DNA of 59,296 nucleotides from a virus, in the IMG/VR virus record IMGVR_UViG_3300044552_000050, positions 1-59,296 of that record. One strand, given 5' to 3'. Made by a program: the position numbers and the translations under genes. This document shows, in pieces, positions 3,473 through 57,010 of the stretch. Each line of letters starts with the position of its first letter. Position 1 is the stretch's first letter. Below the pieces are notes generated by a model. That model was not told where the DNA came from. It was given only the letters and a program-made list of their open reading frames with translations, and made no database searches.

Positions 3473-3801
3473 TGAGATTTCCTTAGAGCATTGGTGAATT
3501 GGTCATCCACGGACTGAACACGCGCACATTCTGTTGTGCCAGTCGGTCGCATGGTGATGAACTGGTGCGCGACTTCATCGCGGGTCCGAAGGAACGGACG
3601 CAGTTCAGCCAGTTGGTCGGACGTGCGCTGCAACCGCGCCTGACTGTCGCGGCTCACTGCCAGAATGGTATTGGACTGGTCAGTTAAGACCGTCTGCACG
3701 TTCTTCAGGTTTGCCTGTGTCGCGTCAATCTCATGACGCAGGTGCAGGTCAACGCCCAATAGCGTGACAATCGCCATGACGGACAGCAGGCGCGACCACA
3801 T
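3469..3801 (-). CDS. i-spanin (Rz-like)
   Basis: N-terminal TM helix (LLSVMAIVTLLGV) followed by coiled-coil-like sequence. Sits directly after the endolysin. Confidence 0.65.
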   Translation of the reverse strand: MWSRLLSVMAIVTLLGVDLHLRHEIDATQANLKNVQTVLTDQSNTILAVSRDSQARLQRTSDQLAELRPFLRTRDEVAHQFITMRPTGTTECARVQSVDDQFTNALRKSQ

Positions 3802-4463
3802 CAGATGAAAAATTCCATCAGCCTTTGGCGGCGCTGCTGCACGGACATAAGCCCTGTGATGCCGCCGTTCACGATCCGACGTGCCTGTGTGAAGTTGCCA
3901 GCGTCGATCGCGCAGTTCACGCAGTTCACGGTCCAGAACTCACCAGCCACATGCAGCCCGAGGTTTGGCTTTGCCACGGCGTCAGGGCTCCCGATCAGAT
4001 CGAGGCCCAAACGGTTGCCGTACAGTCGATAGTTACCGCGCCCGGTAATCTGGATTGCGCCACGACCGCGATACAGCCAGCCGTCATTCACCCCCGTATT
4101 GCCCATACGATTGTTGTACACGCGGTTTGCGAGTGCCTGGGGGTTATGTGCGTATGGTTCTGCTGTGGCGAGCGTGGGGAAGCGTGTGGGCCACACAGCG
4201 AATATCTGTTCGGCAGTGTAATCGAGGTTTTCCGACCACAGACGATACCCGCCCGTTTCAACCACGGTCTGCGCGATGAACTCGCACAGCCGTTCAACGG
4301 TGGTGAGCTGATAGCGGTCGGATGCTTCAGCGAAGAACAAAGCAACGTCCGTGCTATTTTTCGCAATTTTGGAGATCAGCATACCGAACGTCTCAACGCC
4401 CGGTATGCCGTCTTCCATTACGCCGAGTCTGGACTGTGCCAGTTCCCAATCAATATCCGTCAT
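3801..4463 (-). CDS. Endolysin, glycoside hydrolase family 19 (chitinase-like)
   Basis: GH19 signature NDGWLYRGRGAIQITGRGNY. Followed by the spanin genes. Confidence 0.85.
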   Translation of the reverse strand: MTDIDWELAQSRLGVMEDGIPGVETFGMLISKIAKNSTDVALFFAEASDRYQLTTVERLCEFIAQTVVETGGYRLWSENLDYTAEQIFAVWPTRFPTLATAEPYAHNPQALANRVYNNRMGNTGVNDGWLYRGRGAIQITGRGNYRLYGNRLGLDLIGSPDAVAKPNLGLHVAGEFWTVNCVNCAIDAGNFTQARRIVNGGITGLMSVQQRRQRLMEFFI

Positions 4464-55252: not shown

Positions 55253-55969
55253 ATGGATGCTGATTACGAAATTCCGAACCTGCCGATTCACACGGCGCTG
55301 ATTACCGGCATCACGATGCCACTGCTGCCCGGCATCAAGACGCCTGCTGAACTGCTGGCGCACCATGCACGTGTGTCGTCCACGGCCAACCAGTACAAGC
55401 ACGAAAGCGGTGCGAAACTGATTCGCCGTCTGATCGAACGCAAAGAGCCGTCGCCGCTGGAAATGGTGTCTCTGAACTTCCAGGTTCACACCACACGCGA
55501 CATTGGGCGGCAGATGATCCGTCATCCATCGCTTCGACCACAGGAATTCAGCGGTCGCTATTCCGTAATGGACTACACCCTCTATCTGCGCGAATGCCGG
55601 TTGCAGCATCCCACTGACCGCCAAATGTCCGTTGAACTGGATATGTCCAATCCTGAACACCGAGCATTGGCCGACTGGTGGAAGGATGTACAGGGAGAAC
55701 TTCACGCCCATGCACAGGATATTTATCACGAGGCACTTGGCAAAGGGATCGCCAAAGAGTGCTCCCGTGCTGTGCTGCCCGAGGGTAACACTGGCACGAT
55801 GTTCTATTTCGCGTCCCCTCTGCGTAACTGGTTTTTCTATTGCGCGCAGCGGTCTGAACTGAAGACGCAGAAAGAGCATCGCTCAATCGCCAATTCGATC
55901 TGGCCTCAGATCGTTGAACACTTCCCCATGCTGGCCGATCTGCTGCCTACCGACTCACGCGAGGGGTGA
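55253..55969 (+). CDS. thyX: FAD-dependent thymidylate synthase ThyX-like
   Basis: ThyX signature region IRHPSLRPQEFSGRY (canonical RHRxxxxxxxSxRY). About 240 aa. Confidence 0.75.
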   Translation: MDADYEIPNLPIHTALITGITMPLLPGIKTPAELLAHHARVSSTANQYKHESGAKLIRRLIERKEPSPLEMVSLNFQVHTTRDIGRQMIRHPSLRPQEFSGRYSVMDYTLYLRECRLQHPTDRQMSVELDMSNPEHRALADWWKDVQGELHAHAQDIYHEALGKGIAKECSRAVLPEGNTGTMFYFASPLRNWFFYCAQRSELKTQKEHRSIANSIWPQIVEHFPMLADLLPTDSREG

Positions 55970-55971: not shown

Positions 55972-56190
55972 ATGAAAAACCGGGACTTCAAACAGGTCAA
56001 AAAAGATACAGTCGTAGCGTTTGATGACGCGCGCGATTATGTTTCTGGCATATATACTGTCGTCAGTCGCAGTTCGTTCAGTATATGCCACGCAAAAAGC
56101 AAGCAGACCGGCTCAGTTATATTCTTCGGCAAATTGTCATGGTATAATCGGCGCGGCTTTATTGTTGATGTAGACTCACGCGAGGAGTGA
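55972..56190 (+). CDS. Hypothetical protein
   Basis: ATG immediately after junction element j. 72 aa. Confidence 0.5.
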   Translation: MKNRDFKQVKKDTVVAFDDARDYVSGIYTVVSRSSFSICHAKSKQTGSVIFFGKLSWYNRRGFIVDVDSREE

Positions 56191-56192
56191 CT
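56174..56192 (+). promoter_or_regulatory. ACTCAC-N7-GTGACT junction element, copy k
   Basis: AGACTCACGCGAGGAGTGACTTTG spans a stop and the next start. Confidence 0.6.
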
Positions 56193-56990
56193 TTGGCGTT
56201 TTACAACGACATTGACCCTAACGCCGCGAGGACACTGACGAATCTGATGGCCGAAGGTATCCTGCCATCAGGTATCGTGTCGCAGGCATCTATTCTGGAC
56301 CTGACACCTGATGACCTACGTTTGCACAGACAGGCACATTTCTTTGCTGGCATTGGCGGCTGGCCTTTTGCCCTGCAACTGGCCGGATATGGTGATCTTC
56401 CGTGCTGGACAGGTTCCCCACCCTGTCAGCCATTCTCTGTCGCAGGACAGCAGCGCGGCACGGACGACGAACGCCATCTTGCACCCACCTGGCTCGAACT
56501 TATCAAAGCGGGCAGACCTCCAAGCCTCTTTGGGGAGCAGGTTGCAGACGCTATTAGGCACGGATGGCTCGACGCTCTATTCGATGCACTGGAAGCAGAA
56601 GGTTACACCTGCGGGGCGGCAGTATTGCCAGCTTGTAGCGTCGGCGCGCCGCACGTCCGAAAGCGATTGTTCTTTGGTGCGGTCAGGCTGGCCGACACCG
56701 ACCGTGCAGGACTCCTCGAACAATGGCGGTCCAAGTCAGTTCAATCGGAACACGCTACCTCTGAACACGCTGGTCAAAACTATAGAGCCAATCCGCTTAA
56801 CGGCTTCTGGTCAAACACTGACTGGCTCGGATGCAGGGACGGCAAGTTCCGGCCAGTTGAACCCGGCACACAGCCGTTGGCTGATGGGTTATCCGGCAGA
56901 GTGGGATTATTGCGGGGGTATGGAAACGCAATCGTCCCTCAATTAGCAGCAGTGTTCATTGCGGCTTTTATGGACTCGATTTTATCTTAA
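56187..56990 (+). CDS. DNA (cytosine-5)-methyltransferase
   Basis: FFAGIGGW (motif I), GSPPCQPFSVAG (IV), FGEQV (VI), GAPHVRKRLFF (VIII), GYGNAIVPQ (X). The nested +1-frame ORF 56311..56946 also looks methyltransferase-like (see finding). Confidence 0.85.
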   Translation: MTLAFYNDIDPNAARTLTNLMAEGILPSGIVSQASILDLTPDDLRLHRQAHFFAGIGGWPFALQLAGYGDLPCWTGSPPCQPFSVAGQQRGTDDERHLAPTWLELIKAGRPPSLFGEQVADAIRHGWLDALFDALEAEGYTCGAAVLPACSVGAPHVRKRLFFGAVRLADTDRAGLLEQWRSKSVQSEHATSEHAGQNYRANPLNGFWSNTDWLGCRDGKFRPVEPGTQPLADGLSGRVGLLRGYGNAIVPQLAAVFIAAFMDSILS

Positions 56991-56991
56991 A

Positions 56992-57010
56992 ACTCACGCG
57001 AGGTGTGATT
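56992..57010 (+). promoter_or_regulatory. ACTCAC-N7-GTGATT junction element, copy l
   Basis: AAACTCACGCGAGGTGTGATTATG, directly before the 57011 ATG. Confidence 0.6.

Follow-up and report, generated by a model that had tools for sequence, protein, structure and literature searches.

The alpha/beta enzyme M.EcoHK31I was reportedly described by Lee, Kam and Shaw in 1995. Its alpha subunit has about 309 aa and its beta subunit about 176 aa, and separate alpha and beta genes without overlap are reported to give full activity. In M.AquI, alpha carries motifs I–VIII along with some of the variable region, and beta carries the remaining variable region with motifs IX–X. Multispecific methyltransferases of the SPR/phi3T type hold tandem complete target-recognition domains (TRDs) with separate specificities in one chain, and lambda Rz/Rz1 are an example of long same-strand overlapping phage genes. 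Two papers on M.EcoHK31I (E. coli; YGGCCR) describe an alpha/beta heterodimeric C5 methyltransferase (PMC2836561, PMC3404938) in which alpha carries motifs I–VIII and X, beta carries motif IX and activity needs their association (PMC2836561; PMC3404938). One of them states that the coding sequence of beta lies wholly within alpha, in another frame (PMC2836561), and that beta is required for methylation (PMC2836561). The N-terminus of beta is described there as needed for association, with internal Met codons usable as starts (PMC2836561; PMC3404938), and the predicted TRD is placed on alpha (PMC2836561; PMC3404938).

The window analysed here is the whole of IMG/VR virus record IMGVR_UViG_3300044552_000050 (59,296 nucleotides). 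A first-pass annotation, made from the letters alone, had pointed to a C5 methyltransferase locus in which two overlapping frames both read like methyltransferase sequence; both ORFs lie at the positions it claimed, frame B reads as quoted, and the +1 reading of the motif VIII codons is ARRTSES, as it had stated. The locus probably encodes a heterodimeric C5 methyltransferase from two fully overlapping same-strand frames, with the architecture of M.EcoHK31I, a parallel that the annotation had not drawn. Its features are:

56174..56185, + strand: 12-mer ACTCACGCGAGG with the Shine-Dalgarno motif GAGG, upstream of the alpha start
56193..56990, + strand: frame-A ORF for alpha, the large subunit of the C5 cytosine methyltransferase, with motifs I–VIII and X
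56311..56946, + strand: beta ORF (frame B, the +1 frame), 211 aa, wholly inside alpha
56340..56675, + strand: alpha catalytic core, motifs I to VIII (from coordinates, codon-position rates and the AF2 model)
56340-56363, + strand: alpha motif I, FFAGIGGW
56415-56438, + strand: alpha motif IV, SPPCQPFS
56497..56646, + strand: predicted beta helix (aa 63-84) and beta-hairpin (aa 90-112; GSTLYSMHWKQKVTPAGRQYCQLVAS), pLDDT 75-90
56526-56543, + strand: alpha motif VI, LFGEQV
56643-56675, + strand: alpha motif VIII, GAPHVRKRLFF
56644-56664, + strand: ARRTSES (frame B), the +1 reading of GAPHVRKR
56682..56804, + strand: alpha linker, where frame A passes through the DNA of the beta recognition module; hypervariable, low-complexity, open
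56686..56775, + strand: beta recognition-type module GWPTPTVQDSSNNGGPSQFNRNTLPLNTLV (71% identity to the gp71 module described below; wobble at frame-B position 3)
56805..56852, + strand: alpha-specific conserved block FWSNTDWLGCRDGKFR, pattern W..DW.C.DGK.R
56848..56913, + strand: beta motif IX, 22 aa (from hhalign to gp71, entropy and invariant residues)
56904..56987, + strand: alpha motif X (GLLRGYGNAIVPQ) and C-terminal helix (frame-A wobble; pLDDT 90-94)
56914..56918, + strand: G5 run, proposed B-to-A slippage site; unconserved (2 of 56 representatives)

Frame A starts at GTG 56187 (the mechanical ORF, 267 aa) or TTG 56193 (265 aa) and ends at 56990; the 12-mer before it occurs in three copies in the window versus 0.34 expected and also precedes both neighbouring genes. 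The first reading of this frame as a C5 methyltransferase with motifs I, IV, VI, VIII and X was confirmed by the motif positions and by Pfam DNA_methylase (E=6.7e-18), which matched aa 75-182 only and ended at profile position 174 of 324; TIGR00675 scored 49.8 bits, under its cut-off of 100.65. Motifs I, IV, VI and VIII stand in one chain together with motif X (GNxVP) and the C-terminal helix, and GYGNAIVPQ, within 56904-56942, shows wobble of the frame-A type. A folded target-recognition domain and motif IX were absent between VIII and X in frame A, with motif IX found in frame B instead. The linker is stop-free, yet its amino-acid sequence is unconserved and could not be aligned among homologues, and downstream of it the C, D, G and R of the FWSNTDWLGCRDGKFR block are ~95% kept, with wobble at frame-A position 3. 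At least 7998 frame-A homologues were found, including one 265-aa protein (P0121) that is 100% identical, and the C-terminus, which had been likened to that of other phage Dcm proteins, is a widespread conserved type among them.

The AF2 model of alpha was confident at residues 1-165 and 245-265 (catalytic core pLDDT about 78-93), while pLDDT fell to 36-47 in the linker (<50 across 184-204) and to <50 at residues 223-244, which overlap beta motif IX. Foldseek matched this model to M.HaeIII and M.HhaI over about 166-190 columns (prob 1.0), and we read the matched part as the large domain because the model is confident there.

The beta ATG at 56311 is the first past an in-frame TGA at 56302-56304. 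A scan upstream of it found no Shine-Dalgarno motif, and neither a conserved beta start codon nor a conserved Shine-Dalgarno site was found across the family: in many loci the distance from a YYNEWD anchor to the beta start downstream is 76-112 nt, and Acetobacteraceae loci have the beta start 5 nt upstream of that of alpha. The database check suggested for frame B revealed strong similarity, with 176 matches in a single-sequence search and at least 25,819 representative clusters (50% identity) in a profile search, both at E<=1e-3. HMM matches were up to 577 aa long, and phrog_1008 (7.9e-29) and phrog_31772 (5.5e-20) were matched in PHROG; neither frame B nor its alignment gave a useful sequence match in Pfam, NCBIfam or PDB. 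The peptide GWPTPTVQDSSNNGGPSQFNR is likewise frame-B sequence.

Within beta, the N-terminal stretch mostly just mirrors the alpha sequence. The helix-hairpin that follows, whose DNA overlaps alpha motifs VI-VIII (GSTLYSMHWKQKVTPAGRQYCQLVAS spans 56566-56643), is likely a candidate module for docking to alpha, judging from the model. Here frame-B Leu residues at -42, -38, -34 and -30, and at other sites, are better conserved than the frame-A residues from the same bases. The LPTP/WPTP module is present in a single copy, compared to 1-9 copies in homologues. In motif IX, the residues L, P, W, L, M, G and P are invariant across 111 sequences, and amino-acid entropy in this region is lower in frame B than in frame A. 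Overall, AF2 modelled beta poorly (mean pLDDT 62.7), and the values for the recognition module and for motif IX reached only about 56-72.

Canonical phage enzymes hold all of these parts in a single frame. For example, gp71 of Mycobacterium phage WillSterrel has motifs I–VIII, three LLPTP modules and motifs IX and X without a change of frame, with the signatures GAPH.R.RLF, LLPTP..QDG..GGPSQFNRN.LPLN, LNPAF.EWMMG.P.GW and GN.VVPQ, which bears out the earlier statement that WPTP and LNP..WLMG.P..W blocks belong to the VIII-to-X region of such enzymes. The frame-A profile aligned to gp71 motifs IV–VIII (E=7.9e-15), the frame-B profile aligned to its motif IX (hhalign E=7.5e-8), and the beta module shares 71% identity over 31 aa with the in-frame LLPTPTTQDGSNCGGPSQFNRNSLPLNAV of gp71. 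Judged by these alignments, frames A and B are homologous to different parts of the canonical single-chain enzyme. In canonical single-chain actinophage genes, the alternative frames contained 8 and 11 stops, and in Arthrobacter phage Chickaboom the equivalent parts occur as two adjacent genes (gp41/gp42).

We then asked how open the two frames are relative to expectation. Over its 211 codons in the window, frame B has 0 stops; when the 212 overlapped codons were shuffled synonymously 10,000 times, with the frame-A protein and codon usage kept, the mean was 4.35 (P=0.0006). Between motifs VIII and X of 145 related loci, stops occurred in frame A at 2 loci, in frame B at 16 and in frame C at all 145. 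Eight of the 16 loci with frame-B stops were inspected (the eighth being absent from the locus table used), and in seven the stop falls after B motif IX, just before motif X, and is therefore B's own terminator; median open length was 298 codons for frame B versus 329 for frame A. Across 140 related loci, B stops were depleted 13-fold compared to synonymous shuffles (29 observed versus 375 expected), answering the earlier question of whether homologues carry stops in this frame, whereas frame C (1214 versus 1038) and 89 flanking ORFs (613 versus 620) showed no depletion. Segment-wise shuffles of 56 representatives revealed 5 B stops versus 78.4 expected over motifs I–VIII, 0 A stops versus 99.8 in the variable region when the B protein was held fixed, and 8 B stops versus 35.4 in the 3' segment. 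In these tests frame C matched expectation in the I–VIII and variable segments (205 versus 202 and 157 versus 176) and was, if anything, enriched in stops in the 3' segment (145 versus 94).

Substitution rates revealed selection that alternates between the frames. By frame-A codon position the rates were.117/.071/.237 over motifs I–VIII, as in frame-A coding, and.260/.127/.128 in the variable region, which places the wobble of that region at frame-B position 3. Constraint is A-dominant over motifs I–VIII, the block C.DGK.R and motif X (G.LRGYGNAIV), and B-dominant over the Leu-rich helix, the GWPTP repeats and motif IX. Fine maps place the B-dominant sites of motif IX between the A-dominant C.DGK.R and G.LRGYGNAIV, and along the gene's 3' part constraint follows the order A/B/A/B/A. 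The closest relative (L177) has lost neither ORF and shares the beta ATG; in the variable region it differs from the window at 12/3/0 sites by A codon position, which changes 14 of 39 amino acids in A but only 3 of 39 in B. Both frames are under their own, interleaved purifying selection and are maintained at the level of evolutionary constraint. Together, stop depletion and frame-specific purifying selection support the first of the two explanations originally offered, that of a genuinely dual-coding region.

In the two-chain enzyme that we propose, frame A would give alpha, comprising the AdoMet-binding and catalytic large domain (I–VIII), a passive linker, the W..DW.C.DGK.R block, and motif X plus the helix that follows. 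The product of frame B would be beta, comprising the N-terminal stretch, the helix and beta-hairpin as the likely interface with alpha, one LPTP/WPTP module like those occupying the variable (target-recognition) region of single-chain relatives, and also motif IX. Together, alpha and beta would form an active enzyme that methylates phage DNA, presumably protecting it from host restriction. We infer that both chains are translated, associate and are both required, as well as which sequence is methylated; low-level frameshifting may occur besides the two chains. The gene neighbours are ThyX and a PolyA_pol-like ORF with no adjacent restriction enzyme, and the methyltransferase is therefore of the orphan, anti-restriction type, with a likely anti-restriction function. 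We lean slightly towards regarding the nested-beta architecture as the rule for a very large phage and prophage family, in which beta would carry the recognition modules and alpha a passive linker. If so, specificity could evolve by repeat gain or loss in beta while the catalytic chain stays untouched, and standard annotation, which usually names alpha only, would miss half of the enzyme.

Beta could conceivably be translated without being a methyltransferase subunit, either regulating or inhibiting alpha or acting as an independent DNA-binding or anti-defence protein derived from a former recognition domain, and we give this a small but real chance. Such a role would fit the weak AF2 model of beta alone and the repeat number of 1 to 9, as fixed enzyme subunits do not usually vary in this way. 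However, motif IX is almost invariant in beta, alpha has no confidently folded small domain, and relatives of the canonical and split types build a single enzyme from the same parts. The need for beta in methylation by M.EcoHK31I, as stated in PMC2836561, also argues for a subunit.

Programmed recoding, in which a +1 shift after VIII and a −1 shift after IX give a single A-to-B-to-A chain, perhaps alongside an unshifted product, is unlikely to a greater degree. This path would restore the canonical order of VIII, LPTP modules, IX and X seen in WillSterrel gp71, and a G5 run does lie near the proposed return point, although at 56914-56918 rather than 56913-56917 as first reported. An obligatory shift needs neither frame to be kept open beyond the junctions, but frame B is open upstream of VIII (5 versus 78 stops) and frame A is open through the variable region (0 versus 99.8), so neither is dispensable there and the recoding route is unsupported. 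Frame B also has its own conserved residues upstream of motif VIII, the A block C.DGK.R lies between two B-dominant stretches, and the conserved R238 of alpha shares nucleotides with E197-W198, which end beta motif IX. Given these shared bases and the A/B/A/B/A order of constraint, one chain containing all conserved blocks would need four shifts. A scan of 56 representatives revealed no conserved homopolymer site at the junctions, with runs of 5 or more at either junction in only 2 of 56, and third positions at the frame junctions are variable. We therefore abandoned the suggestion of frameshift isoforms: both frames are stop-free throughout, four switches would be needed and the G5 run is confined to 2 of 56 representatives.

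It is very improbable that frame B goes untranslated, as a relic or by-product whose similarity only mirrors frame-A conservation and base composition. Several conserved B strings are indeed +1 readings of A motifs, namely ARRTSES (from GAPHVRKR), AMPSSRKS (from GNAIVPQ) and SLGSRL (from LFGEQV). Yet in the variable region and motif IX the wobble is that of frame B, which is better conserved there than A; the depletion of B stops is not shared by frame C or the flanking genes; and canonical enzymes contain homologues of the B modules in frame. The overprinting relic offered as the second explanation fails because frame B has purifying selection of its own, as revealed by the codon-position analysis. 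Assembly or sequencing indels that split one ordinary gene, for which nothing speaks beyond the presence of the G5 run, are ruled out because the same two-frame layout recurs at about 145 independent loci (isolates, phage genomes and metagenome contigs), with VIII and X sharing a frame wherever the two were identified at one locus, and with the two ORFs and the beta ATG all kept in L177.

Turning back to the two-chain enzyme, the family is mostly annotated as one gene. NCBI-derived names of the sampled frame-A homologues are 'DNA cytosine methyltransferase', and the nested frame-B gene is usually omitted or called 'hypothetical'; elsewhere the gene caller takes B and drops alpha. A tblastn search with a beta protein against plasmids revealed matches lying under genes annotated 'DNA cytosine methyltransferase'. 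Both nested CDSs are annotated in phages K1G, K1H and fTaEco03. In K1H the nested ORF is labelled 'Mte8-like', a term that occurs as an annotation label only in the literature and databases searched and that may, we conjecture, derive from a database entry for M.EcoHK31I. Megablast of the window against GenBank phages gave only partial matches at the methyltransferase and none at positions 15000-39000, and a literature search for overlapping, overprinted or dual-coding phage methyltransferases found nothing relevant. In some family members, the alternative frame used by beta also holds a homing HNH endonuclease gene, nested within alpha.

These findings have several practical consequences. Attempts to match methylomes to genes, and expression constructs, would probably fail if they rely on alpha alone. 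The family also offers a clean and very large set of long overlaps on one strand, of about 200 to >500 codons, in which constraint is interleaved; methods that detect dual coding could be benchmarked on it. The suggested location of recognition modules on the small subunit bears on engineered split methyltransferases made from M.EcoHK31I.

Finally, we compared the locus with known systems. Canonical actinophage C5 methyltransferases such as WillSterrel gp71 have motifs and modules homologous to both frames, but with all parts in one frame rather than split over two. M.AquI and Chickaboom gp41/gp42, like the locus here, consist of two chains that divide within the variable region, the second of which bears motif IX and the recognition part; their genes are not nested (those of Chickaboom are adjacent) and motif X is on the second chain, whereas here the genes are nested and X is on alpha. 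Overlaps of the lambda Rz/Rz1 type also nest one gene in another frame, with constrained regions of one over tolerant regions of the other. They pair an old gene with a de novo one, while the two products here are parts of one ancestral enzyme, and overlap length in the family is about 210 to >500 codons. The likeness to the SPR/phi3T type is a resemblance only, in that beta homologues contain 1-9 GWPTP units and the units are short. The closest match, by its published architecture, is M.EcoHK31I: beta is likewise nested entirely within alpha on the same strand (56311..56946 in 56193..56990), the motifs are divided in the same way (alpha I–VIII and X, beta IX), and subunit sizes of about 309/176 aa are close to the 265/211 aa found here. 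Association depends on the beta N-terminus in that enzyme, and here beta has a confidently modelled N-terminal helix-hairpin (aa 63-112; AF2). The two differ in that the predicted TRD of M.EcoHK31I was placed on alpha, whereas here the LPTP/WPTP modules are on beta and the 'variable region' of alpha is an unconstrained linker. A further difference is that the gene here lies in a phage and has no restriction enzyme beside it. The M.EcoHK31I arrangement was already published, and it appears from our analysis to be conserved, mostly unannotated, in a very large gene family of phages and prophages.

Two long reading frames overlap at the methyltransferase locus: frame A, the alpha ORF, and frame B, the beta ORF nested within it in the +1 frame.

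Methyltransferase locus and neighbouring genes in the window
55253-55969: ThyX, flavin-dependent thymidylate synthase (PF02511, 1.8e-26)
56187 (GTG)..56990, + strand: frame A ORF, C5 cytosine methyltransferase
56340-56363, + strand: alpha motif I
56415-56438, + strand: alpha motif IV
56526-56543, + strand: alpha motif VI
56643-56675, + strand: alpha motif VIII
within 56904-56942, + strand: alpha motif X
56311 (ATG)..56946, + strand: frame B (+1) ORF, 211 aa
57011-57679: ORF with a weak poly(A) polymerase head-domain match (8.5e-4, below cut-off)

TTG 56193 is a likelier frame-A start than GTG 56187, because it lies behind a ACTCACGCGAGG/Shine-Dalgarno element that also precedes both neighbouring genes and because it yields a 265-aa protein, to which a 100% identical protein is present in the database. 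The window contains exactly three copies of the 12-mer ACTCACGCGAGG (0.34 expected), at 55953-55964, 56174-56185 and 56992-57003. Three consecutive genes (a 72-aa ORF, the methyltransferase alpha and the PolyA_pol-like ORF) each have one copy 8-10 nt upstream of their start. Within the 12-mer are the Shine-Dalgarno GAGG and a short inverted repeat, TCAC...GTGA; the element may serve the three genes as a common cassette for translation initiation or regulation. Gene order is the same in the closest relative, L177, where a precomputed PF26128 (Gad2) match falls on the downstream gene. Megablast of window positions 15000-39000 against GenBank phages gave no match, and the nearest methyltransferase relatives come from Acetobacteraceae (Komagataeibacter phage phiKX1, with 83% nucleotide identity across a portion of the gene; also Acetobacter, Asaia and Swingsia), which suggests that the phage is uncharacterised and infects an acetic-acid bacterium.

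Frame A belongs to PHROG family phrog_363, and its Pfam DNA_methylase match (E=6.7e-18) is confined to residues 75-182. The frame-A family (at least 7,998 matches) consists of a conserved N-terminal part (motifs I-VIII), a hypervariable, low-complexity stretch of ~50-250 residues and a conserved C-terminus, FWSxADWLGCRDGKFRPVEPGTFPLAxGIPARVGRLRGYGNAIVPQ. Some alphas (database proteins P0198 and P0209; alignment A2, columns ~527-577) also extend at the C-terminus into a Cys-rich stretch (C..CGFP....C..CEE.Y) resembling a small zinc-binding tail; at loci with this tail, frame B stops ~200 nt ahead of the alpha stop.

The frame-B translation quoted in the first-pass annotation matches the window exactly, and the homology search suggested there found many relatives. 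A single-sequence search returned 176 matches, all short and none with a Pfam domain, the few named ones being 'hypothetical protein', while a profile search reached 25,819 representative clusters at E<=1e-3 (7,065 of them at E<=1e-30). Frame B matches two PHROG families, phrog_1008 and phrog_31772, both labelled 'DNA methyltransferase', and tblastn placed it in 256 GenBank phage records, mostly beneath a single 'methyltransferase' CDS. GWPTP units number from 1 per beta in the window to ~9 elsewhere (P0241-P0390; loci L001-L172), and in P0241 the complete C-terminal half of beta occurs twice, in tandem.

Synonymous shuffling of the 212 overlapped codons in the window, with the A protein and codon usage kept, gave a mean of 4.35 frame-B stops versus 0 observed (P=0.0006); the open frame is not chance. 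We then turned to 172 loci fetched by frame-A patterns alone, a sample that is therefore independent of frame-B state. Motifs VIII and X share one frame in all loci where both were detected, and stops between them occur in 2/145 loci in frame A, 145/145 in frame C (the third frame) and only 16/145 in frame B, homologue stops having been named earlier as the mark of a chance frame. Eight of these 16 loci were inspected: in seven, the stop falls after beta motif IX, just ahead of motif X, and is thus beta's own terminator (the eighth is absent from the locus table). Median open length, stop to stop, is 298 codons for B versus 329 for A, with B usually opening 58-90 nt past the A start and closing 26-38 nt ahead of the A stop.

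Across 140 loci, synonymous shuffles predicted 375 frame-B stops versus 29 observed, and 1038 frame-C stops versus 1214 observed. Segment-wise shuffles on 56 representatives at <=90% nucleotide identity located the depletion.

Stops observed and expected by segment
Motif I-VIII, frame B: 5 observed, 78.4 expected
Variable region (after motif VIII), B protein fixed, frame A: 0 observed, 99.8 expected
Variable region, A protein fixed, frame B: 0 observed, 37.2 expected
3' segment, frame B: 8 observed, 35.4 expected

Frame-C stops in the same representatives were near expectation in motif I-VIII (205 versus 202) and the variable region (157 versus 176) and, if anything, enriched in the 3' segment (145 versus 94). 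In 89 flanking ORFs (20,292 codons) taken as a control, the +1 frame had 613 stops versus 620 expected, and in canonical single-frame relatives the two alternative frames carry 8 + 11, 6 + 4 and 6 + 3 stops. The openness of both frames is maintained by selection.

Substitution rates by frame-A codon position, from 39 disjoint pairs, are those of ordinary frame-A coding in motif I-VIII (.117/.071/.237). In the variable region (.260/.127/.128) they peak at A position 1, so the wobble is at frame-B position 3; there the window and L177, which has the same frame-B ATG plus one extra degenerate repeat, differ at 12/3/0 sites by A codon position, changing 14/39 amino acids in A and 3/39 in B. When the last 48 codons are mapped one by one, the 3' segment (.106/.050/.183) falls into three blocks: frame A dominates at C.DGK.R, where the wobble is at A position 3; frame B dominates at beta motif IX, where B amino-acid entropy is below A's and variation lies at A position 1; and frame A dominates again at G.LRGYGNAIV. 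Some sites are synonymous in both frames together (for example, TTG/CTG Leu in A versus CGT/CGC Arg in B). Stop depletion and B-specific constraint thus bear out the nested frame and its dual-coding reading.

The first-pass annotation had also proposed a single chain made by frameshifting from A to B and back. Although this path yields the canonical motif order, it is not supported, since both frames are kept open throughout, B also upstream of motif VIII and A also through the variable region. Upstream of motif VIII, B is under its own constraint as well: Leu -42, -38, -34 and -30, Ser -25, Pro -12, Ala -2 and Ser -1 are among the residues with higher conservation than what the same bases encode in frame A. 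Because an A-conserved block lies between two B-dominant stretches, joining all conserved blocks in one chain would take four shifts, and a conserved frame-A Arg, which is R238 in the window, has nucleotides in common with the Glu-Trp pair (E197-W198) closing beta motif IX. The G5 run suggested as the return site is present, one base from where it had been placed (at 56914-56918), but homopolymer runs occur at either junction in only 2/56 representatives. The alternative of an overprinting relic is unsupported, as frame B is under its own amino-acid constraint.

Two separately translated chains explain the openness of B and A, the constraint on B, the interleaved blocks and the rarity of homopolymers. 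The weak point of this two-chain reading is beta initiation: no Shine-Dalgarno motif was found upstream of ATG 56311 in the window, and the position of the first frame-B ATG is not conserved across loci, lying in many at +76 to +112 nt from the YYNEWD anchor, sometimes after GGAG or AGGAG, and in an Acetobacteraceae subgroup 5 nt upstream of the alpha start.

Predicted structures were built with 88-sequence (alpha) and 111-sequence (beta) alignments. The alpha model is confident at residues 1-165 and 245-265 (motif X helix), and Foldseek aligned ~166-190 columns of M.HaeIII and M.HhaI at prob 1.0, a match we read as the large domain. pLDDT is below 50 in the linker (184-204) and across the highly 'conserved' PVEPGTQPLADGLSGRVGLLRGY (223-244), where alpha and beta motif IX overlap; this fits conservation there being imposed by frame B. 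The beta model is weak overall (mean pLDDT 62.7) but confident for a helix (63-84) and a beta-hairpin (90-112).

Mycobacterium phage WillSterrel gp71 is a canonical single chain, with motifs I, IV, VI and VIII (GAPHQRDRLF), three LLPTPxxxDG modules, motif IX (RLNPAFPEWMMGWPTGW) and motif X (SRNDQLRIIGNGVVPQ) in one frame. Its module LLPTPTTQDGSNCGGPSQFNRNSLPLNAV is 71% identical to frame-B GWPTPTVQDSSNNGGPSQFNRNTLPLNTLV of the window; the frame-B profile aligned to its motif IX (E=7.5e-8) and the frame-A profile to its motifs IV-VIII (E=7.9e-15). In Arthrobacter phage Chickaboom (L175), gp41 (I-VIII; 729-1325) and gp42 (LPTP modules, IX and X; 1372-1974) are adjacent, non-overlapping genes in different frames, a natural split that may be an intermediate or alternative state. 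From these comparisons, frame A brings the catalytic domain and motif X, and frame B the modules found in the variable (recognition) region, together with motif IX.

In two loci, an HNH endonuclease ORF is nested in alpha in frame B (L001, phiKX1, 3477-3995; L004, 3655-4176), beginning one codon past the beta stop, in the stretch that separates motif IX of beta from motif X of alpha. Frame-A stops across it number 1 (alpha's own) versus 6.4 expected in L001 (P=0.002) and 0 versus 6.1 in L004 (P=0.0004), so the alpha frame there also traverses a homing-endonuclease gene.

Gene callers as well as annotators often choose frame B and omit alpha altogether (L003 2826-3644; L004 2601-4301; L001 2339-3985), and a phiKX1 CDS (L001 2453-2725) is a reverse-strand ORF called over the alpha 5' part, making the family a systematic source of mis-annotation. 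Phages K1G, K1H and fTaEco03 have both a 'putative C-specific methylase' and a nested 'putative Mte8-like protein' annotated; our literature search found no paper on the family-wide nested-frame phenomenon. We infer that a very large family in phages and prophages, most of it unannotated, has this architecture as a rule, which may go beyond the literature.

In M.EcoHK31I, alpha carries motifs I-VIII as well as X, plus a predicted TRD, and beta carries motif IX (PMC2836561; likewise PMC3404938); association requires the N-terminus of beta, and beta's internal Met codons can initiate (PMC2836561). M.AquI is a second two-chain enzyme (PMC3404938). By its architecture, the window locus is best placed among nested alpha/beta C5 methyltransferases of the M.EcoHK31I type. 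Unlike M.EcoHK31I, with its predicted TRD on alpha, the window family would have its recognition-type modules on beta, in variable copy number, an arrangement that may likewise extend what has been published.
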